A stretch of 64,000 nt of DNA from an uncultured Verrucomicrobiae bacterium (GCA_963764165.1 CAVXRD010000004.1:576001-640000), one strand, 5' to 3'; shown: positions 37,248 through 64,000, counted from the stretch's first letter. Notes: a model not told the origin generated them from the letters alone. Made by a program: numbers and translations.

Positions 37248-40200
37248 ATGTTTCGGTTTTACATTCGTTCATGGAGGAGGGTAGGTGTAGCGCTTGCGGC
37301 TGTCGCCATGGAGTGGAATGTACACGCGGCGAATGTGCTTCTCAGTTCGTTTCAAGCCGGCAGCGGAGATTGGCAATTGGGGGCGCCGACGGTCGGGAAT
37401 ATTGACAACACGCCGGACTTGGAAATCATCGTCCCCTACCGCACGACCAGCGGGCAGTGGTTTCTTGACGCTTTTAAATGGAACGGCACGGAACTGCCCG
37501 GATTCCCATGGTCGGACAGCAGCAACAGCGTGATCAACACCTCTCCGACACTTTATGACATCAATGGCGACGGGACGAACGAGATTATTTTCACGTGCGG
37601 CACGAAAGTAATCGCGTTGAATGGCAAAGGAACCGTTGTTTGGTCCAGCAACGTGGATCGTGGAAATTACATTCCCAACGGTGGCTTTCAAGTCCCCACC
37701 AATGGCTTTTATTGGTATCCCACGTATCTGTGGCTGCAGAATCTTCCGGTCACTTCCATTTTTTATTCGCAGGTTTCGCCGCCGATGATTGCCGACCTTG
37801 CGAACTCCGGACACAAGGAAGTCATCACCGCCTGGAAAATCAATCCGGACAGCACCGGAGGCGGGCAGGATTTCAATCCGTTCATCAGCCAGATTTGGGG
37901 CTCCGGCGAATGGGGCACGATGGGCGAGACGTGGTCGGGCGGGGTGGTCTTTCACAACGCCGCCACGGGCGCGCAGGATTATGTTTATCACATCGAGCAG
38001 CTTGTTGAATCCGGCCTGGCCCTTGGCCACGCCACCACCAACGTTCCGACGGATGTCTACGTCTTGAACGACAGCGACAGCGTGGCCGCCTTCGACAAAT
38101 CCCAGCCCAACGGCCTTTGGGGCCGCGGCACGCTGCAAGGGATGTTTGGCAAGAACCAGCAACTGATGAGCGGCTCTTATGAATTGCCGGTGGACGTCTA
38201 CACCGCGGACGTCAAGGGAGACGGCCTGTCCGAAGTTCTCGTGCCGATGACGCGCGTGCCAAGCTATCATCAACCCGGCGACACGATTCTCGATAACGAT
38301 GGCGCAATCCTTTGGCGAGAGTGGCGGCAAAGCACAAATTACAATAACGTCCACGGGTGGCTCAACAGCGCCAGCATGATCCCAGTCAATCCGGACCACG
38401 ACAATCACATTGACGTGCTCACGTTCGCGCAGTCGTTTGAGATAGATTACAGCTATTGGAACGGGATTGCGCTGGTGGACCATCCAGGCTGGCCGATTGA
38501 TTTTTATCCTGGCCTTCCCACGCCGCCAGTGGTGGGCGATGTCGACGGCGACGGCCAACAAGAAATCATCATCGGCACCTACGATCCCACCGTCTATCCT
38601 TCGAGTGGGAATTTGTATGTCTTCGCGCTGGACGGAACACAGAAACAGGTCATCCCTGTGCCCGGCGGCGTCAAACAAATTCCGTCACTGGCGGATGTCA
38701 ACAATGACGGCTCGCTGGACGTGATTTATCGCTCAACGCTGGGTGTGGTTTACGTGCAGAATTTCGGCGCGACCAATGCCACGAATGTTTCCTGGGCCAC
38801 TCACCGCGCCAACGCGCAGCACGATGGCAATTACCAGGTCTCGCTGTTTCCCCCGGGCACGCCATTCATCACGAGCAAAGCGGGCGGCTTCCGCAAAGCG
38901 ATGTTTAGCTGGGGTGGCCCGGCGACGAATACCGCAGCGGAATACCGAATCTATCGCGCGACGACCGCGAACGGCCCGTTCACGCGTCTCCTCACGCTTC
39001 CTTCAACCACCAGGTCTTACACCGACGGCGGGCTGGTGGAGGGCTGGCAGTATTTTTATGAAGTCGGCGCATTGCAGAACGGGCAGGAAGTTCTCTCATC
39101 CCCCTTCGCCGTGCTCTCGATGTTAAACAGCAACCTTCTGGCCAACGGCGGCATGGAGGAAAATGACAACAGCCATTGGGACAAATGGTTCACCGGCGAC
39201 ATCAACTGGAGCAACATGATTGGCAACACCAACGTGTTTTACGAAGGCCAGCAATCGATGGAAATCATCCTCAACACCAATGGCACGGACGGCACCATCA
39301 GCCAGTTCAACCAATATGGAATACCCGACAGCGTTTTCTACACGACACCCGGCGTGCTCTACAGCTTTGGCGGCTTCCTGCGCAGCGGCGGATTGACGCA
39401 GTCCACCGAACAGTGGTTTGAGTGGGCTTCGACACCAACCGCGGTGAACACCAATGCGCCCCCCAGCCTGCCCTATCCAAATTATTACACGCCGCACTTC
39501 GTCACCGGGACGGCGCCCAGCGGATGGGTCTATGAAAATCGCGCCTTCATCATGCCCGCGGGCTTTCCGAATGCCCAATTTTGGCAGCGCTATTCAGTAA
39601 ACAGTCCGGTGAGCGGCTCCATGTATATTGACAACGCCTTTTTCAGGCCACTGCCGCCGCCCTCCAGCGCCGGGTGGAATGAGGTGCTCCCGTTTGGCTC
39701 GCAATGGCGCTACTGGCTACTTGCCGCGCCGCCCAATTGGTATGCGCCGGGATTCAACGATTCGTTATGGCCCCAAGGAAAAGCGAAGATAGGCGCAGGA
39801 ACCGGGCCGCAAAACATCAACACCTACGTCACACCATTCCTGCCCGCCTACTATTTTCGGACGACGTTTACGCTGGCCAGCACGAACATCGAAGAATTCT
39901 TATTGTCAGCGACCTGCACGCAAAACCCCGCGGGGCCTTCGATGCAGATTTATCTCAACGGCCAGCTTGTTCCCGCCACGGACATCGGCGCGGTTTCTGC
40001 CCAAGGAAATCAAGTGCTCTACTTCGACCTCGCCCCGTTCATCGGGCTTTTGCAGCCCGGCACGAACCTCATCGCGGCGGTGCTCAACAATTACACGCTC
40101 CTGGCTTACGATGACGTGGCATTCGATCTCGATTTGAAAGTGATGCCCGGCGTGACGCCAAACATCGGTGCCCAGATTCTTTCCGCGACGCCTGACGCAA

Positions 40201-40409
40201 CCGGCGTGAACCTTCTGGTGCAAGCTCCACAAAACTCGGTTTGGGCTGTGCAGTCCCAAGACAACGTCAGCGAATCCCAGCCCTGGCAATTGGTCCAGAG
40301 TTTCACCAACGGAAATTCCACCACGATCACCATCCGCGACACTGGGCAGAATGGCAGGCCGCCACCGCAGTCAATTCCGTCGCGCTTTTACCGCGTTATT
40401 CCTTACTAA
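37248..40409 (+). CDS. Large secreted FG-GAP/VCBS-repeat protein with Fn3-like and CBM-like domains
   Basis: DINGDGTNEII, GDVDGDGQQEII and ADVNNDGSLDVI repeats; YRIYR..YTD..YFY Fn3 pattern; NLLANGGME; C-terminal RFYRV. TATAAT at 37224 supports ATG 37248. Confidence 0.88.
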   Translation: MFRFYIRSWRRVGVALAAVAMEWNVHAANVLLSSFQAGSGDWQLGAPTVGNIDNTPDLEIIVPYRTTSGQWFLDAFKWNGTELPGFPWSDSSNSVINTSPTLYDINGDGTNEIIFTCGTKVIALNGKGTVVWSSNVDRGNYIPNGGFQVPTNGFYWYPTYLWLQNLPVTSIFYSQVSPPMIADLANSGHKEVITAWKINPDSTGGGQDFNPFISQIWGSGEWGTMGETWSGGVVFHNAATGAQDYVYHIEQLVESGLALGHATTNVPTDVYVLNDSDSVAAFDKSQPNGLWGRGTLQGMFGKNQQLMSGSYELPVDVYTADVKGDGLSEVLVPMTRVPSYHQPGDTILDNDGAILWREWRQSTNYNNVHGWLNSASMIPVNPDHDNHIDVLTFAQSFEIDYSYWNGIALVDHPGWPIDFYPGLPTPPVVGDVDGDGQQEIIIGTYDPTVYPSSGNLYVFALDGTQKQVIPVPGGVKQIPSLADVNNDGSLDVIYRSTLGVVYVQNFGATNATNVSWATHRANAQHDGNYQVSLFPPGTPFITSKAGGFRKAMFSWGGPATNTAAEYRIYRATTANGPFTRLLTLPSTTRSYTDGGLVEGWQYFYEVGALQNGQEVLSSPFAVLSMLNSNLLANGGMEENDNSHWDKWFTGDINWSNMIGNTNVFYEGQQSMEIILNTNGTDGTISQFNQYGIPDSVFYTTPGVLYSFGGFLRSGGLTQSTEQWFEWASTPTAVNTNAPPSLPYPNYYTPHFVTGTAPSGWVYENRAFIMPAGFPNAQFWQRYSVNSPVSGSMYIDNAFFRPLPPPSSAGWNEVLPFGSQWRYWLLAAPPNWYAPGFNDSLWPQGKAKIGAGTGPQNINTYVTPFLPAYYFRTTFTLASTNIEEFLLSATCTQNPAGPSMQIYLNGQLVPATDIGAVSAQGNQVLYFDLAPFIGLLQPGTNLIAAVLNNYTLLAYDDVAFDLDLKVMPGVTPNIGAQILSATPDATGVNLLVQAPQNSVWAVQSQDNVSESQPWQLVQSFTNGNSTTITIRDTGQNGRPPPQSIPSRFYRVIPY

Positions 40410-40468
40410 CTCCGCTTCGAGCGAGCACTTGATTTTATCACAGAGTGGCCCACGGTTGAACCGCTTTT

Positions 40469-40666
40469 ATGGCACAAACGCCAAAGAATAGACCGCCTTT
40501 AGTGCGGGTATGTCCTGTTTGCAAGGGGACCGGATTAGATAAGGAATCGCACCGGAGATATACCACTGGTGGCCACGATGACCGCACTTGCAAGCGGTGC
40601 AATGGAGAATGCGTCATTGATGATCAGGATGACCCCGGCAAGTTGAACTCCCGCAAATCTGGATAG
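40469..40666 (+). CDS. Small DnaJ-type zinc-finger protein
   Basis: CPVCKGTG and CKRCNGEC motifs in 65 aa. Confidence 0.7.
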   Translation: MAQTPKNRPPLVRVCPVCKGTGLDKESHRRYTTGGHDDRTCKRCNGECVIDDQDDPGKLNSRKSG

Positions 40667-40741
40667 TCAAAGCAGCCCACCCACCGACTGCCGTCCGGAT
40701 TCATTGCGACGAAGGAGCGATGGCACTATAATGGCACCGTA

Positions 40742-42418
40742 ATGAGGCGGCTGACCATTCAAATTTCGTTCCTCCTGCTCCTCGCCTTTGGGGCGACAGC
40801 GCAGCCGTCGCTGGACTTTTTCACGAACAAGGCGAGCGCGCTGCTCCAAGCTGTATATGGTTTTGGCGTGACGAACATTCCCATCTACTCACCCACGGAC
40901 ACCAACGTCGGTTATACATCTTCAATCCATTATCTGCTCCAATCGGCAGCCAATCTTTACGACGCTGGCACACCGGCCACAAATTTCCCGTCCGTTTTTC
41001 GGCCGCTGTTTGGATGGAACAGCAATACCTTGGAAATCGTCGGCTACACGAATGTGACCACCGGTTTCTTCCCGCAAATCAGCTCAGGATTCAAAGCCCT
41101 CGGCGATTCGACGATTACCACAAACGACAATGTTTGGGGAATCCCGTGGGTTGTCGGCATGAAGAACGACCCACCGGCCTTCAGCGGCTTTGCCTATCTT
41201 ACTGAGGTTCTCGCTGAGCGGCAACTGTTGTTCCAGCGCGCTACCAACGCAAACGGGGCGCCAAACACAAACATTCCACCGCAGTACACGAATCAGTTTT
41301 TTATAATGACGATTTCGAACTCCTTCGGATTGAAGGCTTGGAATTTCAACAGATCCGCATACACGAATCCAGTCACGATTCTGGTCACGAATCAAATTTT
41401 CGTGACACTGACGAATAATTATAATTGGGGCTCCGTTTATTCGGTGTCAATTGGAACGAATGAACCGATTGATTCATGGCAAGGCTGGAGCGGCAGCCAA
41501 AGTGATGGGAGTTTCTTGGTTCCAATTATAACAAACATCACTGCACTTCCGCAGTCGTATTGGTCGGAGAATCAGAGAACGATGATTGCGCTCCCGGAGG
41601 GCGTCGCAGCTTCAAACGGGTTTTCCGCGACCGACCTTTACCAAACCGGGTGGCCAGTGCATCAGTGGACCGTTGCCGTCACAAATAATCTCGTCTACGC
41701 ATTGGTCGATGATAACTCGGGAGCCGTATTGGATTTTGTGAATCTTGGCGGATTTGGAAAGCTCTTTCCGATTACAACCCTGCTCCAAAACGCACCGCCA
41801 GGGGGAGTCTTTGGAGGCGGAGGCGTGCCATCTGGTGATTATTGGGAAATTGGAGCCGCAACGGAAGCGCCCAATTCACCAATTTCGACTGGAGTTCTAT
41901 ACCAGATCCAGCAAAGCCTCACAAACCAGTATTTTTTAAGCGCCCTGCGCGGCGTGCCGTACAGCGCGGCGAACGCGCCTGACTATCCCGGCCCTCTCTT
42001 CGGTTGCCCGTTTCAGGCGAACATCTCTATCCTGCAAACTTGCAAATGGGCCTCCGCCAATCCTCGGGTTCATTATACCATTTCAGATTTGGCAAATGTG
42101 TTAAACAACCTATTTGAGTATTCCGCGCCCTCGCCATTCGCGCTGACACCTTCATCCTACGCCGGTATCAATACCTATTATAATTCCGGCGCACCGACAG
42201 CCGAGATGGCGCTCCCTGACGGTGCGGCTCTCCAGCTTACGTTTACCGGCTCGACGAATATGCCTTACGTCGTATGGGAATCGCCTGACCTCATCAATTG
42301 GACCCCGACCGCAGTCGCAATGCAAGTCCGGCCAACTTTCGGACTAAGCTCATTTCAATTCAGCGCCATGATAAATACGAATTTACCGGCGCTTTTTTAT
42401 CAAATTCGGCAGCCGTGA
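40742..42418 (+). CDS. Secreted Thr/Asn-rich hypothetical protein
   Basis: Signal peptide, C-terminal SPDLINW...LFYQI; TATAAT at 40726. Confidence 0.85.
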   Translation: MRRLTIQISFLLLLAFGATAQPSLDFFTNKASALLQAVYGFGVTNIPIYSPTDTNVGYTSSIHYLLQSAANLYDAGTPATNFPSVFRPLFGWNSNTLEIVGYTNVTTGFFPQISSGFKALGDSTITTNDNVWGIPWVVGMKNDPPAFSGFAYLTEVLAERQLLFQRATNANGAPNTNIPPQYTNQFFIMTISNSFGLKAWNFNRSAYTNPVTILVTNQIFVTLTNNYNWGSVYSVSIGTNEPIDSWQGWSGSQSDGSFLVPIITNITALPQSYWSENQRTMIALPEGVAASNGFSATDLYQTGWPVHQWTVAVTNNLVYALVDDNSGAVLDFVNLGGFGKLFPITTLLQNAPPGGVFGGGGVPSGDYWEIGAATEAPNSPISTGVLYQIQQSLTNQYFLSALRGVPYSAANAPDYPGPLFGCPFQANISILQTCKWASANPRVHYTISDLANVLNNLFEYSAPSPFALTPSSYAGINTYYNSGAPTAEMALPDGAALQLTFTGSTNMPYVVWESPDLINWTPTAVAMQVRPTFGLSSFQFSAMINTNLPALFYQIRQP

Positions 42419-42465
42419 GCATTACGGCGTTGCCTTCGCGGGTGCGGAGTTGAGATACTGAGAAT

Positions 42466-43770: not shown

Positions 43771-43882
43771 CGCAAAGGGCGAGGATCCCCCTGACTCGCA
43801 TTACTCCCATTTCTCCAATGAAAATGGGACAGATCGGAGTAATGGGAATTATAGGGCGGCTCGACAGGCGCCTCGCCCTACC
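43766..43882. repeat. Degenerate GTAG-type REP pair enclosing tcccat/atggga repeats
   Basis: Right arm cggctcgacaggcgcctcgccctacc; partial left arm ggtag...agggcgagg. Confidence 0.6.
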
Positions 43883-43961
43883 ACGTCCAAATTCGCCGCA
43901 GTATTGTGCCGCGCAAGCGCGGTTGAATCGCGTCAAGCAAACGGATATACATGCGGGCGCG

Positions 43962-45116: not shown

Positions 45117-45573
45117 CGGCGTGCCAATGAACGGTTCGGCAAGCGCAACCGATTATAATTTGCCCCTGCCGAATAAATTTTCTTGCAGTCCCATTAAATC
45201 ATGGTAATATAAGAATATGGAAATATCATTTGATGGGATTGGGGGCGGCGCGGCGGGCGCAGGCTGGCCTGGCGCCCGGCTGTTGGGCGTGGCTGCCTTC
45301 TGCGCAGGGAGGCGGGGCTCTTTTTGGGTATTTCTGACGCTGCTGTTTCGAGATGCAGCGGTTTTCCGCCAGGAGATGGGATGCGATCGGAATGGTCGAG
45401 CGCGAGTCTCTTTGCCGAAGTTGGTTTTCAGTCTGGCAGGCGCAGAATTGGGGATCGTGTGTTTGGCCGGTTCTGGATACGGGCAAGCCAGTCGCACCAA
45501 ATCGCACCTGTTTTTCGAAAAATCGACAATTCGCCACATGACAAACATTTGCCTGAAATTTTCCAAAAACCAC

Positions 45574-45628
45574 TTGACGACCACAACCCTTTGTTGTTAT
45601 CAAGGCGCAACACTACATTATGTAGCGG
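45574..45628 (+). promoter_or_regulatory. nrdR promoter region with two putative NrdR boxes
   Basis: TTGACG at 45574. ccaCaAccctTtGttg (45581) and ctaCattATgTaGcgg (45613) are 32 bp apart and resemble acaCwAtATaTwGtgt. Confidence 0.55.
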
Positions 45629-45640
45629 TTGTTAAACCCT

Positions 45641-47008: not shown

Positions 47009-47039
47009 GCCCACGACAGCCGTGAAGCACAATTTCTAT

Positions 47040-47150
47040 GCAGCGCAGGTTTCAAAACCTGCTGTATCGCAGGCTTCCAAGCCTGCATGCGGTGTTGCGG
47101 CAAGCGGATTTGGAAATCCGCGATACAGCAGGTTTGGAAACCTGCGCTAC
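47040..47150. repeat. REPIN-like element of a second GTAG family (gtagcgcaggtttccaaacctgc)
   Basis: gcagcgcaggtttcaaaacctgctgtatcgc ... gcgatacagcaggtttggaaacctgcgctac, with inner hairpins. Confidence 0.88.
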
Positions 47151-49110: not shown

Positions 49111-52023
49111 CTACCCTTTTTTCGGCTTCGGTCTCCCCGCCGGAACCGCGACCTGCGGACGGGAAGGAGGATTGGCCGGTGGCGCCGAATTTGCGGCCAC
49201 CGGAGCGGGCGTGGCAGGCACTGGGGCCACCGGAGCCGCTTCGCGTTCGGGATGCTTGCGCGTGACAATTAGAAATCCCGCCAGCAATGCGCCCGCCAAA
49301 ATCGCGCTGACGCTCACATAAAGCCCCGTGATCGACGGGCTGAATTTGAATTCAACCTTGTGCTGACCGGCAGTCAAATAAACGCCGCGCATGATGAAAT
49401 TGCACCGCAGCATTGGCGCGGGATTTCCATCGACTGTCACGCGCCAGTTTGAGTCCCAGCGGTCGTTCAAAAGAAGAACCGCGGCAGTCTTGGCGTTGGC
49501 GTCGAGTTTGACCACCTTCGGATGATACTCGGCAATCGTCACTTCTCCAGCGTCCGCCGTGGAATCTGACCTGGGTTGCGGCGGCGGAGTGTTCGTGGCA
49601 ATGAGCACTGTGTTCAACGGCTCAAAATCCTGGTTCGTCAACATTCCAAGCGTGGCGACATCGTTGGATGGCGTGAGCCAGTTGGAAAAGAGTTTTGCCC
49701 TCGGCAGCGCGCGATCGTACTCGATCATCGCGCAATCGCCCTTGCCCTGAGCTTCGACCACCGTGTAGTCGCTGATCTCAACCGCAGCCACCCCCGGCTT
49801 CTGCGTCGTTTTCATCAATTCCTTGAGCTTAAACGCATGGTGAATCGGATCGGCGCGGACGTTGAGCGTTTGCAATGCTCCAGCATTGCCGAAAAAGTAA
49901 CGCGTGTTGGTGAGCTGCCATAAGCGCGCCGCCGGGCGAAGATCGGTCGAGGCAATATCCGCGCCGACAAGCTCGAACGCCTTCAAGTAGACGCGATCCA
50001 GATCCGGCATGTGCGAGGCTTGGGAAAAATCCAGCGTCTGGATGTTGTGATACGGAAAATCATTTTGCAGCCAGAAGAAATAGAGCTGGCCAAGCCCCGG
50101 CTGAACGCCGCTTCCCGGTCCCCTCGGCTCCAGTTTGCCGATCACGCGGTGCTCCCAAGGTTTGTCAATCAAAAATTCGGTCGCCGCATTCATCACATAT
50201 TTCTCGCGGTAATCGTAATAGTGCAGCCAGGGAACATCGGCTCGCGCCAAATCCCAGATCATAAGGATGGCCATGCAGCTCCAGGCCCATTTCGATTCGC
50301 GCCCGGTCCACGCCCCGCAAAGAACCGCCGCGATTATGAGCATGCCGCCGAGAAGAAAGGCCACGAAAATGACGGCTTCCTCAAGCGTGAACGCGGATAT
50401 TTGCCTGGCCTGGTTCAGCGTGAACGATTGCTCCCGCAAATAACGCATATGATCATTTCGATCCATGGCCAGCAGGACGGTTCCAAGAATGGCCACGCCA
50501 GCGAAAGCGAGCATGAAGATCGCCCATTTGCGTTCAAATCCGACGGCGCGCTTCCACCATGTGTGAATCTGGCTAACGAGAACATCCGTTGATTTGTTCC
50601 CGTAGTTCCTCATGTAGCGGCGGTAGAGCACTTCCATTCCGTAGGCAGCGAGGATGATCCAGGCAATATGGAACGGATGCATGAACTTGATAGGATTTCG
50701 GATCGTCGAAAAATAAGGGAGCTTGTAAATGAATTGGTAAATAAATCCAAATCTTCCCCATGCCGCGAGCAGCGAAAACACCGCCACCGCGCCCCAGTAA
50801 ACGACCGACATCCATTCCGACTTTGAAAATACTCCCTCCGCTTTGCTGCGAAATATATTTGCCACTCCGAAAATGGCCAAGAGCGAGACGAGGACGCCCG
50901 CGCACTCACCCGAGCCGGAGTATCGCCAGTAAATGCCGCTCTTCCGCGTGATGTTTTGCAGTCCGGGGGTTCGCGAGAGGCGATCGGGCGTATCGAGATT
51001 TGTGCGGAACGCTTCGCCAAGCTTCATGGCGGTCAGCGCGTTCGAACGCACCACCGGATCGTCGCTGCCGAGAAGCGGAAGCTGCGGGGCCTGGCCGATT
51101 CTGCCCCAATAAGCCGAAGAGTGATTTGTCTCGTCGATATTGCCGCTGAGGCGATAGCCAAACAGCCCCGGCACCATGACTTGCAGCGACTCCGCTTTCG
51201 GCAAGCTCCATTGCGTGGCGGGATTCCAACGCGACTCCCTTGTTTGCTCGTCCTGATTCATTGCGGCGACGCCTTCAACTTCCGTCTCAACCAGGGTGTG
51301 CATTGTTTGATAAGCGATGACTGCCGCGAAAAGAACAACCAATGCGCCACCCACCGCCACGTTCACCGCCCTAGTGGCAAGGGGAGCGTTGTTGTTCACA
51401 AAGAGATGGAAGACTAGATAAACGCCCAAGTAAATACTAAGAATAGCCCCAACATCGTACCCCTCCATGACTCCCATGCCGACCGCCAATCCCGCAAGCA
51501 CAGCGCGCTCCCAGACGCGCGGGATGGCCTTCGCGTTCAGCGCCGCCATGGCCAAGAAGGTGCATGCGGCCGCCAACTCCCAATGGCCCAAACCCCAGCA
51601 GGCGATGGACAGAAAATGGCCGTTCAATCCCGCCGCCACGCCACCCAGAACGCACACCATCGGGCCGAAATTAAGCTGCCGGAAAAAGAGCCACGCCGAA
51701 AAACCCAAGAATAAAAGCGTCAGCGGCGCATACATTTTCAGAAACACCACTGGCGAAAGCACCGTCGCAAGCGACATCGTAATGCTCGGGGACGCTGCCG
51801 GGGCATCGCCGCCCAGCCATGCATTGTCCGTCCAGGTGCCGGTGAAGCGGCCCGGGAGGCGGTTGCACTCCACGACCCGCTCGCCAAGAGTGTGATCGTT
51901 GTCAAAAAGAATGTAGTGGGGATTGAGGCTTTGATGGAAAAGGCAGAGCAAGGCCGCGCCAAGCAACGCAAACAACAGCCAGCACTGGCTCGTTTGGCCT
52001 GATGTCCCGGAAACGTTACGCAT
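49111..52023 (-). CDS. YfhO-like GT-C membrane protein
   Basis: Polytopic; PYFSTIRNPIKF; C-terminal LLNDRWDSNWRVTVDG...NFIMRGVYLTAGQHKVEFKF followed by a TM helix. Confidence 0.85.
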   Translation of the reverse strand: MRNVSGTSGQTSQCWLLFALLGAALLCLFHQSLNPHYILFDNDHTLGERVVECNRLPGRFTGTWTDNAWLGGDAPAASPSITMSLATVLSPVVFLKMYAPLTLLFLGFSAWLFFRQLNFGPMVCVLGGVAAGLNGHFLSIACWGLGHWELAAACTFLAMAALNAKAIPRVWERAVLAGLAVGMGVMEGYDVGAILSIYLGVYLVFHLFVNNNAPLATRAVNVAVGGALVVLFAAVIAYQTMHTLVETEVEGVAAMNQDEQTRESRWNPATQWSLPKAESLQVMVPGLFGYRLSGNIDETNHSSAYWGRIGQAPQLPLLGSDDPVVRSNALTAMKLGEAFRTNLDTPDRLSRTPGLQNITRKSGIYWRYSGSGECAGVLVSLLAIFGVANIFRSKAEGVFSKSEWMSVVYWGAVAVFSLLAAWGRFGFIYQFIYKLPYFSTIRNPIKFMHPFHIAWIILAAYGMEVLYRRYMRNYGNKSTDVLVSQIHTWWKRAVGFERKWAIFMLAFAGVAILGTVLLAMDRNDHMRYLREQSFTLNQARQISAFTLEEAVIFVAFLLGGMLIIAAVLCGAWTGRESKWAWSCMAILMIWDLARADVPWLHYYDYREKYVMNAATEFLIDKPWEHRVIGKLEPRGPGSGVQPGLGQLYFFWLQNDFPYHNIQTLDFSQASHMPDLDRVYLKAFELVGADIASTDLRPAARLWQLTNTRYFFGNAGALQTLNVRADPIHHAFKLKELMKTTQKPGVAAVEISDYTVVEAQGKGDCAMIEYDRALPRAKLFSNWLTPSNDVATLGMLTNQDFEPLNTVLIATNTPPPQPRSDSTADAGEVTIAEYHPKVVKLDANAKTAAVLLLNDRWDSNWRVTVDGNPAPMLRCNFIMRGVYLTAGQHKVEFKFSPSITGLYVSVSAILAGALLAGFLIVTRKHPEREAAPVAPVPATPAPVAANSAPPANPPSRPQVAVPAGRPKPKKG

Positions 52024-52055
52024 AACGGTAGGTTTTCCCGATTTAACGTGAGAAA

Positions 52056-53096
52056 TTAACCGCGGGCGGGAACAGCCGTCTCAGCGGGAATATTCACTTT
52101 GGCCGGCGTAACAGAGCGGCCCATTTGGCCTCGCAGCTGTTGCTGCGACGCCAGCCTGTCTCGCGCGCGCAGCATGAGGCCCCGGCTCGCGTCTTCGATG
52201 GCCGACAGGGTTTCGGGCTTCAATTCGGATGCGCCCGATCCGTTCACTCCTCTGCGGAAGTAGCGGCTGCCCCCCCTGATTGTGCGAGCCTCGAGCGCCT
52301 GCAATTTTCCAAACCGCATATTGGATTCGGCGCGGACCACGACCGCCTCCGGGTGCGGAATTCCGGCCCAGTTCAGGGAGTCGCTCAGAACAGAGGCGGT
52401 GTCTTTGAGCATTTCCTCGTAACTTACGAGGTGAATCGGCAATCCTGCGTCAAACGCGTCCAAGTAACCGGTCACGTGCTCGACCCAGGACGGAAGAAAC
52501 TCAAGGCACAGCAAATCGATATCGGCCCGGTTGTTGGTGCGTATATATTTTTCTCGCAGCGCAAAATGGTATAACGAAACCAAGACGTCCTCTGGAGCGC
52601 GAAAAATATAAAGAAACCGGAGTTTGCCGACATCAATGCTGGCTGGAAATCTCGAGCGAAGCAGCGGCAGCGTGTCATGAGTCTTGATCAAATTGCCGTA
52701 GGCCCGGCCCGCAGGCATCCGCGACGCAATGCGGTCGGCATAATAATCGGGAACAAGCCTCTCGGGCTGAACCGACCCGGTCGCAGTCTCGATTCCGTGC
52801 AACTGCAGCAGGACGTCAGACATGAGGTACCGCATCCAAGTGTTGCCAGAGCGGCCGTAGGAGCAGACAAAAGTCAATTTGCCCGGCTCCTGCGCAAGCC
52901 TGCCGAGCTCGGAATTATTAAACGCCTGGACGACCAGCCGGCGCACCGGGGCAAAGCCTTCGTCGAGCAGCCGCGGCAATTGCAAGAGTGTGCTGGGCCG
53001 AAGCAACAGGCGGCCCGTTTGGAAAAGGCCGTTCAGCATTTTTGAACCCTTCGGAGAACCATTGGTTTCCGATGGGGGCAGTTGAGCATTTTTCAT
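52056..53096 (-). CDS. PAPS-dependent sulfotransferase
   Basis: SYGRSGNTW (5'-PSB), IKTH, RAPEDVLVS (3'-PB), YEEM, FRRG. Confidence 0.9.
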   Translation of the reverse strand: MKNAQLPPSETNGSPKGSKMLNGLFQTGRLLLRPSTLLQLPRLLDEGFAPVRRLVVQAFNNSELGRLAQEPGKLTFVCSYGRSGNTWMRYLMSDVLLQLHGIETATGSVQPERLVPDYYADRIASRMPAGRAYGNLIKTHDTLPLLRSRFPASIDVGKLRFLYIFRAPEDVLVSLYHFALREKYIRTNNRADIDLLCLEFLPSWVEHVTGYLDAFDAGLPIHLVSYEEMLKDTASVLSDSLNWAGIPHPEAVVVRAESNMRFGKLQALEARTIRGGSRYFRRGVNGSGASELKPETLSAIEDASRGLMLRARDRLASQQQLRGQMGRSVTPAKVNIPAETAVPARG

Positions 53097-53184
53097 GAGT
53101 TCTTACCACAAGCTGCAGGGGAACATAAACTATATGCCGCCGGATGACAAGGCGCCACCCCTTCACGCGGAAATTCATTCATGA

Positions 53185-53218
53185 AAACCCTCTCATGGTT
53201 GTAAGGAGATACCCTACA
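53185..53218. promoter_or_regulatory. Shared 34-bp upstream motif, copy 1
   Basis: aaaccctctcatg-gt-tgtaaggagataccctaca; matches 55180-55213. Confidence 0.55.
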
Positions 53219-53347
53219 GAGGTTGATTTCGATTGTCAAGCCCCCGAACCGACTCTTGCCAAAGGAGATTTTCGACTTGCCCATCCCTCAAAGTCTTGTC
53301 ACGGTTGAGCTTCCGTTACTGAATCGAAAGACGTCGTTTTGTCTATT

Positions 53348-54082
53348 ATGATTGGAAGCAATTCGCGGCCTGGCGGCATTTATTTCAAGACGTGTGAGCT
53401 GGCCAAACGAGTTGCCTACCGCAGCCGCTGGCTGAACGCCTTGACCCGCCCGCGTTTTCCGCTGTTTGGAATGCAGCCCGCACAGCTTGCCTGGCTTGTC
53501 AATAAGATTGACGAAACCAAAACCGCCAATCGCGCGCCAGGGGCGATTGTGGAGGTGGGAGTTGGCTTGGGGATGACGACTGTGTTTTTGCTGGAGCACA
53601 TGCGGCTGTCCAACGACAAGCGTCCTTATTACTGTGTGGACACGTTTAGCGGCTTCCTGTCCCGCGACTTGGATTTCGAGGAAAAGCAGCGAAGCAAAGT
53701 TCGCCTCGCGATGGAGGGGCGCTTTAGTTACAACAAGCGGGAGGTGTTCGAGGGCAATCTAAAGAAGGCCGGCTACACCAACCAGATTGTCATCGGCGCA
53801 GACGCGGCTGAGTTCGATTTTTTGCGCGTAGGCCCCGTTGACGTGATGCTGCTTGATGTGGATCTGTACCTTCCCACCAAAGCCGTGTTGGAGCGGGTGA
53901 CAAAATTCATGAATCAAACGTCCTATCTCATGATCGACGACTGCATGCCAAATTCTCTTTGGGATGGTTCCGATCAGGCCTATAACGAGTTTTTGACAGC
54001 GCAAGGAGCGCAACGGACCATCGTCGGGACCAAGGGCGGTGTTTTTGGAAAGTCGCCTACCCTTGAGCGACGTGCTTCTTGA
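53348..54082 (+). CDS. TylF/MycF/NovP-like O-methyltransferase
   Basis: GAIVEVGVGLG, DTFSGF, LDVDLY, IDD. Confidence 0.85.
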   Translation: MIGSNSRPGGIYFKTCELAKRVAYRSRWLNALTRPRFPLFGMQPAQLAWLVNKIDETKTANRAPGAIVEVGVGLGMTTVFLLEHMRLSNDKRPYYCVDTFSGFLSRDLDFEEKQRSKVRLAMEGRFSYNKREVFEGNLKKAGYTNQIVIGADAAEFDFLRVGPVDVMLLDVDLYLPTKAVLERVTKFMNQTSYLMIDDCMPNSLWDGSDQAYNEFLTAQGAQRTIVGTKGGVFGKSPTLERRAS

Positions 54083-55085
54083 TTAAATCCACGAAATAGT
54101 CGGAGCCAAAAGGGTCAATCTTTGTGCCGTTGACGAACTCCTCAATGGCCTGGATGCGATCCCTGTAATCCTTTTCAGTCATGCTGGCCAGGTATCGATA
54201 CATGGACTCATTGTCGGGAAACTTGCGGCGGTCGACGAATGTTTCCGGCGGAATGTGCTCCACAACATCGGGCGCCCCCAGGTAGACGGGGATGCAGCCG
54301 GCGAAGAATGCGTCGAAAATCTTCTCCGTGAGATAACCCGGAAACACCGCATTTTCGTAAACGATGGCGAATTTGTATCCAATCATAACATCCCGTTTTC
54401 GGCTTACCGGCCCTCGCCACGATGGGAAGTTGCGCGTTTTGAACCGGTGGGGAGCCATGCTGTAAAATTTGGACAGGAACAGATTTAAGCGCCAGAGATG
54501 ATTTGCGAAATAAAAGCGATCCCACCGCTGCCCAAACAGGTCAAATTGATCTGGGTGATTCCGCTCGAACCAGCGAATGATGTCGATGCGCTCCCGGTAA
54601 AGCCCGCACGAGTGAGTGCTATACTTTTGACTTGACAGCAGGATGGAAAATTTATTCTTGCGGGAGACGTCAATTGCCAGCGGCCGCGGTATATTGACGC
54701 AATAATGCGTGGGAAGGTATTTTTTCCCGTCGATTAGCGTTGGATCCCACGTAAAAACTTTTTCGAAGTCCTTGTGCAGCCACTTCCAATAATTGTCCGG
54801 CCGGTTCAGGCGATTCTCCAGCAGGAACACGTAAAGCTTTGTCCGCGTATTTCGCAATCGGCGAAAATGCGAGTTAAGGAATGTTGGGTGGTCAAAGAAA
54901 ACTGCCGCATCGAGCTCGCCTTCGGCCCGGTCAAGCGTGTTTACGGTATGGCCCAAAGCCCGCAGCGTTAAGGCCATTTTGGCCGTGGGGTGGGTCACGT
55001 CATCGCCCGCCGCTGACGACGATTGAGCCTCAAACATTTTGTTCGCATTGTAAAACCCGTAGAAGTTCCAAAACCCGAGGTTCAT
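54057..55085 (-). CDS. GT10 family glycosyltransferase (alpha-1,3/4-fucosyltransferase-like)
   Basis: YKFAIVYEN...GYLTEKIFDAFFAGCIPVYLG motif. Start taken at ATG 55085. Confidence 0.9.
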   Translation of the reverse strand: MNLGFWNFYGFYNANKMFEAQSSSAAGDDVTHPTAKMALTLRALGHTVNTLDRAEGELDAAVFFDHPTFLNSHFRRLRNTRTKLYVFLLENRLNRPDNYWKWLHKDFEKVFTWDPTLIDGKKYLPTHYCVNIPRPLAIDVSRKNKFSILLSSQKYSTHSCGLYRERIDIIRWFERNHPDQFDLFGQRWDRFYFANHLWRLNLFLSKFYSMAPHRFKTRNFPSWRGPVSRKRDVMIGYKFAIVYENAVFPGYLTEKIFDAFFAGCIPVYLGAPDVVEHIPPETFVDRRKFPDNESMYRYLASMTEKDYRDRIQAIEEFVNGTKIDPFGSDYFVDLIKKHVAQG

Positions 55086-55179
55086 TAAAATTGTGCGGGC
55101 GGCACTAATTGCCCCTTTCGAACCCGGCAAGAGTTGGCGACCAAAATGTCGACTTAGCCGCTAAACTGCTTTCAAGTTG

Positions 55180-55213
55180 AAACCCTCTCATGTCTGTAGT
55201 GCAAATCCTGACA
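55180..55213. promoter_or_regulatory. Shared 34-bp upstream motif, copy 2
   Basis: aaaccctctcatg-tc-tgtagtgcaaatcctgaca. Confidence 0.55.
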
Positions 55214-55315
55214 AAATAAAAAACGATGTCAATCCCCTTTGGACGCATTATCGTTATGTGAAGGCAGCAACTCTTGCGTCTTGTTTCGCCGGATCAAGCA
55301 ACTTATTCTAACGGT

Positions 55316-58300
55316 ATGACGAGTGGCCAAGGAAGTAAACAGACCGCAACAGTATATCTGGTTTTTTTGTTATTATTGACGCATGTATCTTATGGAAGTA
55401 CAGGCTTCGTTCCACTTCCTTTGGTGTCATCGAGTTTCAATCAGGACGTTGTCGTCGAGAAGACGGCGCCTGCCCCGATCTTCAGCGGTGAATTTACAAC
55501 AGCTTCAATGGATGCCGGTCTTGGCAACTCAGGCACGAGCTGGTACGAAATGGGATTCGACACCGCTGCTCCCACGACGGGACTGCCTCACCCTGGCGTC
55601 ATCTTCACAAGCCAAACTTCGTCGACGCACCAATATATCATGGCCCCGAGTTACGCGACGAATGACGCCATTCTTATTGACTCGACGTTGAAAAACTCAA
55701 CGCTGGTGCTGACGACGCCGACCATTTGCAGCCAACTTTCGTTTCTGGAGAGCGCCGGGCACGGGCCGGTGTCGTTTAAGTACACCGTGCATCACGCTTC
55801 GGGCGCATCCGATACGGGCACTGGAAGCAGTGTTGACTGGTTTACGTCATCGACGGCGGCATGGACGGCGAATGGGAGAGTCGATGTTGGAACATTTGCC
55901 TTGAGCAGTGTGAACGGAAATGACCCGCGTCTTTTTTCTTTGGACATCACCCTTGCTAATACGACAAATCCCGTGACAAGCATCGATTTCACTTGGGTAA
56001 GCGGCACTGGCGAAGCGGCGGTCCTGGCCGTCAGCGGCGGCACCGGCGGGACGTTCTCGCCGTTGATTGTGACGGGCTACAACGAGGACATCATCGTCGA
56101 AGCCGCAGCGGGAACATCATTGTCGGGATTCACAACGGCGACAATGGACACCGGACTGACTAATACGCTGAATACTTTTTTCGAAGAAGGCTACGATCCA
56201 TCTGCTCCGCTCGTTGGGATCCCTCCCGCTGGTTCGACGTTCACAAGCGCCTCCGCTCCCGACCATCTTTATGTCCTTCCGGCGAGCTACGCCGCGAACA
56301 ATGCTCTCCTTCTCACATCCAACACACCGACTGGGACAATGACGCTCTCCAGCGCCGTTACGGAAAAGGGATTGTCATTCCTATGCTCTGCGGGAAACGG
56401 GCCGGTGACCGTCGGTTATGTAGTTCATCACAGCGGCGGGGCGACGGAGAGCAACACGCTTGTCGTGCAGGATTGGTTTTCGTATTCGCCTGTCGCGTGC
56501 TTTGCCAATGGCCGCGTCAACGTCAGCTCCAGGACCGTCAATAATATCAACGCCAGCAACCCGTGCCTTTACTCCGTCGACGTCACCTTGAACAACACCG
56601 CCCCGGTCGCGTCCGTAACGCTTACCTGGCTCTCCGGTGAAAACGGCGGCAACGCGGCTTTCTTTGCCCTCAGCGGCGGCTCCTCGACACTCCCTTTTGC
56701 GACGGACGACTTCAACACCAACAGCGCCGTCGCCGCCAACGTCATGCAGCAGTGGTACAACCAAAGCGGTCTTTACAACTCCACCGGGTGGTGGAACGCC
56801 GCCAATTGCCTCGAAGGCCTTGAAACCGTCATCGCAGCCGATCATCAATTGCAATATCTCAGCGTTCTGACCAACACGCTTGTTTTGAATTCCAACGCCA
56901 ATTTTCTCAACGGTTATTACGATGACGAAGGCTGGTGGGCCAACGCCTGGATTCACGCCTACGACCTGACGGGCAGCACGAATTTTCTCCGCGCCGCCAA
57001 AATCATTTTCTCGGACATGAGCAATTCGTGGAACTCGGCCAATTGCAACGGCGGCATTTGGTGGGATAGATCCGAAACCTATAAGAACGCCATCGCCAAC
57101 GAACTGTTCATGCTCGCGGCCATTCGCCTGCATCAGCGCACGCCCAACGACACCGGAGCAGGCAGTTATCTCGCTTGGGCGACCAATGAATATAATTGGT
57201 TCCTGCAAAGCACGATGATCAATTCGGAATATCTCATCAACGACGGCCTCACGAACTGCGTCAACAATGGCGGCCCGACTTTCACTTACAATCAGGGCGT
57301 CATCATTGGCGCGCTGACCGACCTTTACAAAGTCACCGGTGTCACCAACTATTTGACTCTGGCGACATCCATCGCCCATGCCGTCGTGACGAATTTGAGC
57401 AGCGGACACGTCCTCGTGGAAGGCTCGCCTTGCGACCCCACCTGCGGCGGCGGCGACGTGCCGGAATTCAAGGGAATCTGCATTCGCAACATCGCCTATC
57501 TTTACGATGTCACGCATGACCCGCAATTGTACACCCTGCTCTATGACTCCGCCCACTCCATTTGGTTCGTCGACCGCAACGTTTACAATCAACTCGGCAT
57601 GTCGTGGGCTGGCGTGGTGGACGCGGTGGACGCCGCGCGGCAAAGTTCAGCGCTCGCGGGGGTCGCTGCTCTTGCGCAACCCATCACGACGAATCTTTTG
57701 TTCGTGCGCGGCGCGGGCGACCCGTCGTTCACTCACGCCATCGGAAGCGCGACCGGCGCGCTCGGCTGGACTTGCGGGCCAACCAACGCGCAGAACGCAA
57801 ATTACATGCTGAGCGGGCCGCACGTTGCCTATTTGCCGCCCGGCCTGCACGCCGCGCATTTCCAACTTTCGGTGGACGCCCTCAGCAACTCGCCCGCCAG
57901 CCTCGCGATTCTCAGCGTGCTCGAAGACAATTCGTCCACGATCCTTGCGACCGCGCCGGTTCCTTGGAGCGCATTCACCCAGGTTGGCGTGCCGCAGGAC
58001 TTTGTTGTTCTCTTTACAAACAATGTCGCAGGCGACCCACTCCAATTCCGCATTTTCTGGACGCGCGCCGCGGGAGGCCCGGATTTGACGGCGAATGACG
58101 TGGCGATCGATGGGCTGATGAACTGGTCGGGCGCAAATTTGATTCACGACATCGGCCACCTCGATGGATTGAACGCGTGGGCGGCGGATCTTCGCAGCTC
58201 GACCTTGTCCGGCTACTTGTCGCGCGGGCCGGGCATCAACACCCTTCCCACTGGCGATTACACGGCGACCTTCGAGTTGAAAGTGGACAACTTCAATTAC

Positions 58301-58741
58301 GACACCGCCGTCGTGGCCACCGTCTCTGTTATTGACATGGACACGGGCGTTGCCGTCAGCACCGAGGCCATCACGCGCAACCAATTCCCGAACACGCTTT
58401 ACCAGCCGTTCACGCTCAGTTTCAACGCGGTGGCGGGAACGCATTATGATTTCCGCACCTATTGGTATCGCAGCGCCAATGCGCCACGCCTGACGCAGCG
58501 CAGCGTCTTTTTGCGCCCCGGCCCGCAGGCATTTTTCACCTCGGTGCAATGGGCAAACGGCGCGCCGCAATTTGCGATTGCGGGCGTTCCCGGCCGCACC
58601 TACTCGCTGCAGGCGACACCGGACTTGACGCTGCCATGGTCAACCATCGGAACAGTGACAATTCCGGCCAACTTGGGATTCGCATCAGCGGCTGACGCCG
58701 CCGGGACCGCGGCAAAATTCTACCGGTTAAGCTACCCGTGA
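55316..58741 (+). CDS. Secreted multidomain GH76 glycoside hydrolase
   Basis: WWNAAN, YYDDEGWW (catalytic DD), GGIWW, KNAIANEL, TYNQG, FKGI. Duplicated N- and C-terminal domains; ends in KFYRL. TTGTTT-N17-TATTCT-N6-ATG 55316. Confidence 0.9.
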   Translation: MTSGQGSKQTATVYLVFLLLLTHVSYGSTGFVPLPLVSSSFNQDVVVEKTAPAPIFSGEFTTASMDAGLGNSGTSWYEMGFDTAAPTTGLPHPGVIFTSQTSSTHQYIMAPSYATNDAILIDSTLKNSTLVLTTPTICSQLSFLESAGHGPVSFKYTVHHASGASDTGTGSSVDWFTSSTAAWTANGRVDVGTFALSSVNGNDPRLFSLDITLANTTNPVTSIDFTWVSGTGEAAVLAVSGGTGGTFSPLIVTGYNEDIIVEAAAGTSLSGFTTATMDTGLTNTLNTFFEEGYDPSAPLVGIPPAGSTFTSASAPDHLYVLPASYAANNALLLTSNTPTGTMTLSSAVTEKGLSFLCSAGNGPVTVGYVVHHSGGATESNTLVVQDWFSYSPVACFANGRVNVSSRTVNNINASNPCLYSVDVTLNNTAPVASVTLTWLSGENGGNAAFFALSGGSSTLPFATDDFNTNSAVAANVMQQWYNQSGLYNSTGWWNAANCLEGLETVIAADHQLQYLSVLTNTLVLNSNANFLNGYYDDEGWWANAWIHAYDLTGSTNFLRAAKIIFSDMSNSWNSANCNGGIWWDRSETYKNAIANELFMLAAIRLHQRTPNDTGAGSYLAWATNEYNWFLQSTMINSEYLINDGLTNCVNNGGPTFTYNQGVIIGALTDLYKVTGVTNYLTLATSIAHAVVTNLSSGHVLVEGSPCDPTCGGGDVPEFKGICIRNIAYLYDVTHDPQLYTLLYDSAHSIWFVDRNVYNQLGMSWAGVVDAVDAARQSSALAGVAALAQPITTNLLFVRGAGDPSFTHAIGSATGALGWTCGPTNAQNANYMLSGPHVAYLPPGLHAAHFQLSVDALSNSPASLAILSVLEDNSSTILATAPVPWSAFTQVGVPQDFVVLFTNNVAGDPLQFRIFWTRAAGGPDLTANDVAIDGLMNWSGANLIHDIGHLDGLNAWAADLRSSTLSGYLSRGPGINTLPTGDYTATFELKVDNFNYDTAVVATVSVIDMDTGVAVSTEAITRNQFPNTLYQPFTLSFNAVAGTHYDFRTYWYRSANAPRLTQRSVFLRPGPQAFFTSVQWANGAPQFAIAGVPGRTYSLQATPDLTLPWSTIGTVTIPANLGFASAADAAGTAAKFYRLSYP

Positions 58742-58860
58742 TGTGTGGCGGCAAGGGAGGAATGCGAAGCATGGGAGTTATGGAATTACCATTCGCTTGA
58801 CACTGCCCGCAGCCTTTTTTCCAGCTTTCCTGAGTTCCAGATTAAAAACGTCCCCCCGTT

Positions 58861-60291: not shown

Positions 60292-60448
60292 TTTGGAGAA
60301 CGAACACTACCAGCCAGCTTTCCAATTAGCCATAAAATCAGTGTCAACTACATAGCGCACCGGCCCTGAGGTTCTCAAAGCAAATCGCCGGTGGCGTTTG
60401 GGCCATCGGCGATTCGTTGCCATTCCGGTTCCGCTCCCCAACCCCGGC

Positions 60449-62479: not shown

Positions 62480-62765
62480 AAATAGCATCCTTAAACGTGC
62501 GTTCCTGCGTTGGCGGTCAAGCCGGGCACCATCGCCCGGATCAATCCGTTCATGCGCCAATACGCCTTGAGGGGACGAATCTTGCATGAGGGTCGATATG
62601 TACCCAGAAGACTCTCCTCACTGCTAAGCAACATGCGAAATCCATCCTTTTTTGCAAGGCAAAAAGAGGCGCAACCAAGGCTGAAAACCCACCCGCAATG
62701 ACGCCCAATGACCTCCGTTTCTTGAGAATTTTGGTCTATATTATGGCTTAAGTCGCGCCTCATCA

Positions 62766-62826
62766 TTTTCCAAAAAACAGGTGACATTTGCTGAGATTTG
62801 GTGCGATTTGCTAAGATTAGGTGACA
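62766..62826. repeat. A-tract plus degenerate 10-bp-period array
   Basis: aaaaaacag gtgacatttg ctgagatttg gtgcgatttg ctaagattag gtgaca; related to the reverse complement of 45491-45521. Confidence 0.7.
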
Positions 62827-62856
62827 CTGTCCATCGCAGCCGCAAGCCGTCCCGGC

Positions 62857-63044
62857 GGCCAACAGATCAGGACGCAGATCAGGACGCAGATCAGGACGCA
62901 GATCAGGACGCAGATCAACGCAGATCAACGCAGATAAAAATTCAAGAAAGCGACCTGCGAATCCGATCCTGTCCAGCATGATGCCGCCGGGTCGCAAGCT
63001 GGCGAACGCGTGTCTTAACAGAAAATCTGCGTTCATCTGCGGCC
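62857..63044. repeat. Inverted-repeat element with an expanded tandem arm (cagatcaggacg x4, cagatcaacg x2)
   Basis: Right arm atctgcgttcatctgcggcc; related to 16254-16435. Confidence 0.8.
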
Positions 63045-63233
63045 ATTTCTCAGTAGTTCCATTATCCGTTTTGTCATACGAGGCACTTTGGCACATCGAA
63101 ATGAAAACAGAAAACCTACCAGAGGTTTTTGGGCACGATTTATCGAGAAAAAGCCGGAAATTGGATCTGGTACGACTCGGGCGACCTTGGCGACGGCTGC
63201 GCAGGGCATTGAATATGCATAATCTCGAAAAAG

Positions 63234-63315
63234 CCGCTACATCCGCTACACCGTTGATTCTCAATGAGATAAACCGCTACATTTGCCGCTACAAGGCCGC
63301 TACAGACCCGCTACA
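63234..63315. repeat. Six copies of CCGCTACA
   Basis: Copies start at 63234, 63243, 63274, 63286, 63297 and 63308. Confidence 0.8.
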
Positions 63316-63397
63316 TTTCCTTGGAGGAGGGGTTTGACTCGATAACTCGGTGCCTGCCAAGGCCAGCTATCCAAGCCGGAACGATTCAGCTTGGACT

Positions 63398-63573
63398 GGG
63401 ACCGCGACCGCCTCGGTCGCTCTGGCTGGCCCACGCGAAAGCGTCTTCCCAATAATTTGTTCTGATCTCTCGCCAGCCAGCCTTGCGCCACCATCACCAT
63501 TTGGTGAAGAATCGGACACAGCATGGGTTTTCGGCGGGACGCCGAAAATAGCGGTCGAGACGACCGCGCTCCC
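63398..63573. repeat. REP-like hairpin pair (gggagcgcgg family)
   Basis: gggaccgcgaccgcctcggtcgc ... ttttcggcgggacgccgaaaa-ta-gcggtcgagacgaccgcgctccc. Confidence 0.65.
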
Positions 63574-63615
63574 TCAAAGCAAGGGAGTCGTTCCGGCTAA
63601 GATCGACTCTCGGAA

Positions 63616-64000
63616 TTACTGGTTCCCTTTTAGCTGGAAGAACTGGGCGCTGCCTGTGGTGGGACTCGTGTATGGGCTGGTCGCGCCCGGAATGTTCGTA
63701 AATGGACCCGGCAGCAAAGGCGCGCTCTGGAGCGAGAAGGCCGCGTTCGTCCAACTCAGCACGACGGCGTTCGGGATCTGCAGAATGTTCAGCGGAATCG
63801 GGACGAGCATCGGCGCGGCAATCGGCAGTGTGTATGAAAAAAGTGCGCCGTCATTAAATGCGCTGCCGCTATAAACCGAACCGAAAAGCGCGCCATTATA
63901 CAAAGTCAAACCTCCCGTCGGCGCAGCGCCATCCGCGTAACTGAAACTGTAAAGGACGGCGAAGCCCGTTCCGTCGGTGTTGATTTGGAAAATGTTGCCT
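63616..64000 (-). CDS. C-terminal part of a GloVer-type tandem-repeat exported protein
   Basis: GNIFQINTDGTGFAVLYSFSYADGAAPTGGLTL..GALFG repeat, then LSWTNAAFSLQSA...AQFFQLK. The frame stays open beyond the window end. Confidence 0.85.
   Translation of the reverse strand, partial: GNIFQINTDGTGFAVLYSFSYADGAAPTGGLTLYNGALFGSVYSGSAFNDGALFSYTLPIAAPMLVPIPLNILQIPNAVVLSWTNAAFSLQSAPLLPGPFTNIPGATSPYTSPTTGSAQFFQLKGNQ

Follow-up and report, generated by a model that had tools for sequence, protein, structure and literature searches.

A stretch of 64,000 nucleotides from an uncultured Verrucomicrobiae bacterium (GCA_963764165.1, CAVXRD010000004.1:576001-640000; hereafter the window) encodes, wholly or in part, four proteins that share a C-terminal unit, the FYR tail. 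The FYR tail is one family of about 70 residues found on about 204 proteins of this genome, and it very probably has a surface-targeting role of some form. We tentatively read it, with confidence slightly short of even, as a portable, non-cleaved docking tag through which a filament machine of the type II secretion system (T2SS) or pilus type exports and displays its cargo. An earlier note on this DNA had proposed a lineage-specific domain for targeting or anchoring. A lineage-restricted domain of this kind is well supported by the terminal position, the signal peptides of the carriers, the exchange with PEP-CTERM and other tails, a predicted adaptor that supplies the tail in trans and the lack of a catalogued family; for the machinery, we infer a surface destination and a type IV filament route, the latter from gene context.

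The first of the four is an exported FG-GAP repeat protein (37248..40409, plus strand), an open reading frame (ORF) with a signal-like N-terminus and PF13517/PF01839 repeats. Its tail lies at approximately 40173..40406 and carries a 10-residue insertion ahead of the last strand. An exported protein of 558 aa follows (40742..42418, plus strand), with a body lacking any Pfam or NCBIfam match and a tail at approximately 42182..42415. The third is an exported multidomain GH76 protein (55316..58741, plus strand; PF03663, E 1e-37), the tail of which (58514..58738) is modelled as a six-stranded, FN3-like sandwich without strand G. The fourth is a GloVer-repeat protein (TIGR03803, E 4e-92 on the whole protein of 801 aa) encoded on the minus strand. 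The 3' end of its gene lies at 63616..64000, and the gene is complete in the genome, starting at window position 66021, about 2 kb past the window end. Its tail, at approximately 63619..63810, is of a short subtype. All four C-termini read as quoted in the earlier note, and the bodies show no mutual BLASTP match at E<1e-10. Signal-like N-termini are present on the three proteins complete in the window, as had been claimed, and on the complete GloVer protein too. From the shared F[YF][RQ][VLI] motif to the stop there are 3, 3, 3 and 4 residues (FG-GAP, 558-aa, GH76 and GloVer protein, respectively).

The likeness of the four tails exceeds chance. A hidden Markov model (HMM) trained on 144 further copies from this genome, with the four tails left out, recovered the GH76 tail at E 7e-12, the 558-aa protein tail at E 5e-7, the FG-GAP tail at 0.0027 and the GloVer tail at 0.051, a test of family coherence rather than of independent discovery, as the 144 copies came from an iteration seeded by the four tails. 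The respective bit scores of 53.5, 36.6, 21.7 and 19.7 lie above the maxima of 200 shuffles each (9.1-12.4 overall; 9.1 for the FG-GAP and 9.6 for the GloVer tail), and the tail HMM found 0 matches in a reversed-ORF database. The GloVer tail is matched at E 6.7e-7 by a model of 10 other short tails, which had been chosen by a pattern drawn up after the GloVer tail was viewed.

Iterating the HMM on six-frame ORFs of the genome (assembly of 7.0 Mb, 97% complete) yielded 162 matches at E<0.01. The set of about 204 proteins combines HMM matches with the short subtype and a tail-only search. A strictly C-terminal position had been expected and largely holds: among 164 matches, 141 end at most 7 residues from the stop and 8 at 8-15 residues (149/164 in all), with the other 15 farther inside. 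All but one of the 163 proteins of the main match set carry a single copy. The last residue is also constrained, being Pro in 94/204 and Gln in 49/204 tail proteins (143/204 together), as against 9% and 5% in other genes, and 38/241 and 27/241 in other low-charge signal-peptide proteins. GH76 homologues picked by the catalytic domain alone bear the tail by HMM in 103/120 cases, all ending in Pro or Gln, and a further 9/120 have the short subtype as judged by eye. Of the 8/120 without a tail, 3 are labelled partial and the others are apparently truncated or frameshifted.

The tail profile matches 91/201 Verrucomicrobiota genomes and 58/104 genera of the phylum. Genomes with single matches have no shared carrier when compared by ORF length. 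Across proteins clustered at 50% identity the profile matches 88,254, some true FN3 repeats included; two of the top-ranked representatives inspected were such repeats. Neither Pfam nor NCBIfam holds a model for the tail (four proteins and their tails, and for Pfam also 44 members), and the 30 nearest Atlas clusters have no Pfam family in common. The best sequence match in the PDB reached E 0.012, and Foldseek returned no match at E<=0.001. No description of the domain was found in the open literature; most subscription journals and supplements lay outside the search, and a mention in print is possible.

The tail is predicted to be an FN3-derived, six-stranded sandwich without strand G, the edge of which would be open. 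The AlphaFold model of the GH76 tail (44 alignment rows) has a mean predicted local distance difference test score (pLDDT) of 90.6; two residues separate the end of the sixth and last strand from the C-terminus. The FYR domain in an adaptor protein described below was modelled at pLDDT 85-94, and the two alignments match each other at 97% probability (E 6e-11). Among FYR domains, the fold model covers these two tails. The structural matches are FN3 and Ig-like (immunoglobulin-like) chains with Z at most 7.0, the best (root-mean-square deviation (rmsd) 2.2, 67 residues aligned) at a value that might reflect no more than a similar arrangement. Many FN3 chains score Z 5.8-6.4, for example 1cfb (Z 6.4, rmsd 3.7, 73 aligned). 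Several solved FN3 chains align without their last ~19 residues (3mpc, 3-77 of 96; 9y5y, 1-70 of 89), which fits a loss of strand G in the tail. In tandem arrays, the next copy begins after the last strand via a short Pro-rich linker, leaving no room for strand G. The most conserved positions are a Leu (96%), a Trp (95%) and the Phe-Tyr-Arg (77, 74 and 77%), together with a Gln/Glu on strand C; these positions may form one surface patch. A match to an Ig family had been named as evidence against a new targeting domain. Such a match exists at the level of the fold, which appears FN3-derived; at the level of the family none was found.

Carriers of the tail look exported. By a crude rule, a signal-like N-terminus is present in 139/180 carriers as against 1399/3973 other genes, and many of the carriers failing the rule look like start-codon errors. 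A lipobox was seen in 1 carrier, a Tat signal in 0 and a later hydrophobic segment in 12. Among proteins of at least 400 aa, the tail occurs in 160/237 with less than 7.5% lysine, glutamate and arginine combined and in 0/1318 with at least 12%. The 192 tail-bearing bodies compared fall into 63-93 clusters. Domains listed from 36 hand-picked proteins, mostly carriers, include LamG, Ig, PA14, CotH/LTD, BspA leucine-rich repeat (LRR), GH2, Calx-beta, S53 peptidase and passenger repeats, and many cargo proteins bind or act on glycans. One ORF of 11,324 codons with passenger repeats has a single FYR tail at its end (G000:C1:939962-973936). N-glycosylation was considered as a cause of the Asn/Thr richness and ruled out, with sequons at 1.07 observed over expected and no STT3 found (control positive).

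The tail also exchanges with other C-terminal tags. Autotransporter passenger repeats occur on 8 ORFs of this genome, 7 ending in an FYR tail and 1 in PEP-CTERM; a search of the genome for the autotransporter barrel PF03797 found none, with positive controls. FYR tails do not overlap with the PEP-CTERM pattern in this genome. A second C-terminal tail family is carried by 22 large exported proteins, 21 of them ending at most 9 residues from the stop (examples in G000 are C1:1158063-1140742, C2:2928951-2934071 and C2:2258452-2254082, the last at L058:2085-6437). In the single carrier scanned it matched nothing in the libraries, and it occurs together with the FYR tail in 0/22 proteins. One carrier sits three genes past a pilus cluster resembling Amuc_1098-1101. 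Different tails may address different secretin machines. Among 30 paralogous bodies without an FYR tail, 5 end in the second tail and 2 in PEP-CTERM.

A dedicated adaptor would allow the tail to act in trans. Three small genes encode a signal peptide, a glycine-rich three-repeat segment and an FYR tail, and one of them lies after two fibre genes, the products of which start with an FTYQG head and end in an S74 chaperone (L158:784-5129; G000:C1:820781-828760). The S74 domain was found on two fibres of this genome, which also have a signal peptide and a conserved N-terminal beta domain. Of 79 adaptor loci in other genomes (L079-L157), 47 hold a fibre-head gene, 41 of them directly adjacent (<=600 bp, same strand). 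Complete fibre-head proteins bear the FYR tail in 0/66 cases and adaptors in 86/86, a biased count as the query included the tail. Fibre-head genes occur in 34/200 genomes, 32 of which are tail-positive. Neither the adaptor segment nor the fibre head has a Pfam or NCBIfam model; an Atlas search with the adaptor segment gave no usable named match, and no solved homologue of either chain was found at E<1e-3. The glycine-rich segment modelled alone stays below pLDDT 50. Together with three fibre heads of about 110 aa, the adaptor gives a complex score of 0.90, with 0.17 for the best of 3 controls, partner pLDDT of at least 85 and at least 93% of contacts shared between runs. The mark applied to this score was reached by 116/157 solved complexes and 2/215 mismatched pairs, counts only roughly valid for this job. 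In the predicted complex, head residues 4-14 of all three copies contact the adaptor, and the closest pairs link two head copies to two adaptor repeats. The prediction thus supports binding, in which one adaptor would clamp an S74 fibre trimer (1:3).

The adaptor appears to carry whichever tag its lineage uses. Of 63 longer homologues of the adaptor segment, 48 end in an FYR tail by HMM, 3 in a PF00404 dockerin and 1 in DUF4214. The same fibre-adaptor pair occurs with another short ending on the Herpetosiphon aurantiacus plasmid CP000876.1 (L163:2785-5150). There, the adaptor ORF, which the record does not list as a gene, terminates in a hydrophobic-Leu-Pro-x-x-x-Arg motif, possibly a Chloroflexota tag, with which the next gene, Haur_5100, ends as well. 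A Bacteroidota version of the adaptor with the C-terminal domain (CTD) of the type IX secretion system (T9SS) was not found by the searches run. The slot on homologous adaptors thus appears to hold a lineage-specific tag, which would require neither covalent attachment nor cleavage. As S74 domains remove themselves by self-cleavage (PMC10769870), a tag at the fibre C-terminus would be lost.

The genome is well equipped with candidate machines. Five secretin loci are present: T2SS accounts for two full clusters and a partial one, and the others are a pilNOPQ-like operon and a cluster resembling Amuc_1098-1101. Gene order in the two full clusters is gspE-F-G-H-I-J-K-(L-M)-D. In one T2SS cluster the secretin is split in two ORFs, with the N-domains on 532 aa and the barrel on 413 aa (L054:12375-15241; G000:C2:2361363-2364244), and GspK in both clusters bears ComEA-like helix-hairpin-helix repeats. 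Tail genes cluster with prepilin-like genes, 30/80 of which have one no more than two genes away, as against a mean of 10.3 and a maximum of 20 under a null of 500 shifts; the 80 were chosen by pattern, and all 12 scanned match pilin N-terminal models. The prepilin-like proteins encoded beside tail genes have an F-x-DG-H motif. Direct neighbours of a prepilin-like gene make up 31/198 tail genes as against 41/1310 other signal-peptide genes, and 16 prepilin-like genes have a tail gene immediately upstream, 11 one immediately downstream. The pilN-pilO-pilP-pilQ-like operon (L057:2920-13869; G000:C1:404839-415872) lacks pilM. In 14 of the 20 genomes fetched (L202-L221) from the 34 with that secretin, genes for one to three tail-bearing NHL-propeller proteins, candidates for PilY1-like tip adhesins, come directly after pilNOPQ. 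GspG is present at E<1e-20 in 63/68 genomes with at least 3 tail matches, and each of the remaining 5 has a full-length match, at 6e-20 to 7e-16. Two profiling attempts were discarded. Single secretin sequences in 80 genomes gave no usable result for lack of an orthology signal, and a 22-position H-X9-DG model was too insensitive (20/72).

We suggest the following route for a docking tag read by a T2SS- or pilus-type machine. Cargo would first reach the periplasm by Sec, as the signal-like N-termini indicate. The tail would fold there as a six-stranded sandwich, its predicted last strand ending 2-4 residues before the C-terminus and leaving an open edge. A component of the filament machine, most plausibly a pilin-like subunit to judge by gene context, might then bind this edge or the Gln/Leu/Trp/Phe/Arg positions. 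Proteins with an unavailable C-terminus would carry the domain at the N-terminus, where it occurs in the sequence of an FGE-sulfatase-fold protein. Trimeric fibres of the S74 type would receive the tail in trans, from an adaptor predicted to clamp three fibre heads with its glycine-rich N-segment. The machine would finally carry the tail proteins across the outer membrane and display or release them. A more far-reaching version, less likely than not as a whole, makes the tail an FN3-derived recognition handle by which Verrucomicrobiota would export and display proteins en masse through T2SS or type IV pili, docking by its terminal strand on pilin-like subunits of the large prepilin family and lent in trans to trimeric fibres by dedicated adaptors. 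The adaptor would be a cross-phylum plug to which each lineage attaches a tag of its own, and an equivalent could be the sought surface partner of the MAT fibres of Bdellovibrio.

Several observations weigh against export by such a machine. The receptor, a candidate pilin-like subunit, is proposed from gene context, and 162/198 tail genes lie more than two genes away from any prepilin gene. Prepilin adjacency may also reflect co-regulation in sugar-use loci. Among genomes of the order without a pilNOPQ secretin at E<1e-60, 25/26 are tail-positive, and the pilNOPQ machine is therefore not a general route. GspG occurs in 80/132 genomes with fewer than 3 tail matches as well, and secretins are near-universal (197/201 genomes); with GspG and secretins so widespread and the genomes kin, the joint profile of GspG and the tail is weak. 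Paralogous bodies without the FYR tail, 23/30 of which show no recognised tail at all, count against a strict requirement for it, though some of these may be periplasmic or broken copies. Neither the dockerin nor the Herpetosiphon motif ending adaptors is a known outer-membrane export signal. Finally, internal or N-terminal copies (15/164, ~9%) suit an anchor as well as a signal, and the same holds for tandem arrays of up to 8-10 copies with a period of 70-80 residues, which are over-represented among the matches since these are ranked by summed score.

The tail might instead be a non-covalent surface anchor acting after export by an independent route. It would bind an outer-membrane scaffold, lipopolysaccharide, S-layer or exopolysaccharide, and the adaptor would fasten fibres to the cell. 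We regard this as a credible though less favoured explanation. Besides the arrays and internal copies, it would account for adaptor segments ending in dockerin, DUF4214 or the short Herpetosiphon motif. The N-terminal domain of Bdellovibrio S74 fibres is likewise expected to bind a surface element, the identity of which is still sought (Caulton et al., PMC10769870). However, a simple anchor would need neither the fixed distance to the C-terminus nor the Pro/Gln ending, and single copies prevail in the main match set. Passenger-repeat proteins without a barrel would still require an exit route, and the linkage to prepilin genes and pilNOPQ would be left unexplained. No scaffold was found, though no systematic search for one was made.

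A chaperone or translocon unrelated to type IV filaments and so far undescribed could also read the tail, for example by donating the missing G strand as for chaperone-usher pilin domains. The six strands, the FN3 chains aligning without their last ~19 residues and the weak profile support for T2SS all speak for such a system, which we nevertheless judge improbable. Usher (PF00577) and PorV (PF19572) each gave 0 matches in the genome with positive controls, as did the autotransporter barrel, and there is only one Omp85. Since the next tandem copy follows the last strand at once and the domain is modelled confidently in the absence of strand G, a donor strand is not obviously needed. Least probable is a truncated FN3 spacer or carbohydrate-binding module (CBM) without a sorting role, spread by recombination among exported proteins, since the FN3-like fold, the profile matches to true FN3 repeats with a G strand and the many glycan-related cargo proteins are outweighed by the terminal position in 149/164, a presence on cargo as varied as proteases, LRR proteins, passenger-repeat proteins and cytochrome c peroxidase-like proteins, the mutual exclusion with other tails, an adaptor made of little else and the absence of any CBM or fn3 model match stronger than E 0.003 in 44 members.

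As a docking tag, the FYR tail would work like a T9SS CTD or a dockerin without belonging to either, or to PEP-CTERM or FN3 proper. The T9SS type A CTD of Bacteroidota (PF18962, TIGR04183), a small beta-sandwich, forms the very end of many unrelated proteins with signal peptides. The FYR tail resembles it in being terminal on signal-peptide proteins with unrelated bodies, and in cargo such as LamG, PA14, CotH/LTD, BspA LRR and Ig. Unlike that domain, it has six strands of FN3 type, also occurs in N-terminal and tandem positions and is probably not cleaved. PF18962, TIGR04183 and TIGR04131 have no match in the four proteins, their tails and 44 members; SprA (PF14349) and PF18962 gave 0 matches in the genome, though no control genome matched either, and no solved T9SS CTD is named among the structural matches listed. 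Dockerin type I (PF00404) and SLH-type anchors act by a non-covalent mechanism. The FYR tail is likewise portable, uncleaved and mostly terminal, and dockerin fills the same slot on homologous adaptors; the all-beta fold of the tail is unrelated to dockerin, and neither a PF00404 match nor a cohesin-like partner was identified. FN3 proper (PF00041) shares the topology A-B-C-C'-E-F, yet none of the 44 members is listed for it at E<=0.1, and the tail has six strands rather than seven, the protein ending after F. Chaperone-usher pilin domains also lack the final strand, but no usher was found in the genome.

PEP-CTERM, GlyGly-CTERM and MYXO-CTERM are described as a motif, a transmembrane helix and a basic tail cut by a sorting protease, and proteins with either of the latter two are reported to depend on T2SS for surface localization (bioRxiv 10.1101/2023.06.07.544157). 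The FYR tail shares with these the use of one C-terminal tag by many proteins, and PEP-CTERM alternates with it in this genome; unlike them and sortase-type signals, it is soluble, all-beta and folded. The likeness to cleaved tags drawn in the earlier note is not supported, as the tail lacks a sorting motif of the transmembrane kind, the genome search for PorV found none, and N-terminal and tandem copies exist; such copies fit a non-cleaved docking domain. Another parallel is PilC/PilY1, which dock on PilK by a terminal strand, a free peptide of ~10 residues, in a tip complex of one or two adhesins (bioRxiv 10.64898/2026.02.14.705861). The FYR tail similarly ends non-pilin proteins with a terminal beta-strand, and beta-propeller cargo is encoded with pilus genes. 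That strand, however, belongs to a folded domain on about 200 proteins, its docking would be a hypothesis drawn from gene context, and only a minority of tail genes are associated with type IV filament genes. In T2SS, according to the same preprint, GspK itself supplies the strand, and a direct copy of the PilK docking geometry is thus not expected for a standard T2SS. Bdellovibrio MAT fibres (PMC10769870) resemble the fibres described here in the architecture of signal peptide, conserved beta-rich N-terminal domain and, in many members, a C-terminal S74 chaperone. The combination of adaptor and FYR tail is found in Verrucomicrobiota and a few other sequences.

Elsewhere in the window, a GDSL lipase with Ig domains (2387-3997, minus strand) is of exported type without an FYR tail. 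Beside the GH76 gene, positions 49111-55130 encode a YfhO-like membrane protein, a sulfotransferase, a TylF-like methyltransferase and a GT10 fucosyltransferase, possibly a surface-glycan cluster. Past the window end, translated text some 0.4 kb ahead of the start of the GloVer gene may resemble the 3' end of a group II intron.

Some two thirds of this genome's large proteins of low charge, the extracellular type, carry the FYR tail (160/237), which is unnamed in every library searched. In Verrucomicrobiota from soil, peat, water and gut, the tail would allow exported enzymes and adhesins to be recognized in one step. The adaptor-fibre pair is a candidate explanation of how cell surfaces hold S74 fibres that do not belong to phages, and with two small proteins it is directly testable. 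How T2SS recognizes its substrates is a long-standing open question. If T2SS reads the FYR tail, the tail would be a modular signal for that system, useful for studying and engineering export.

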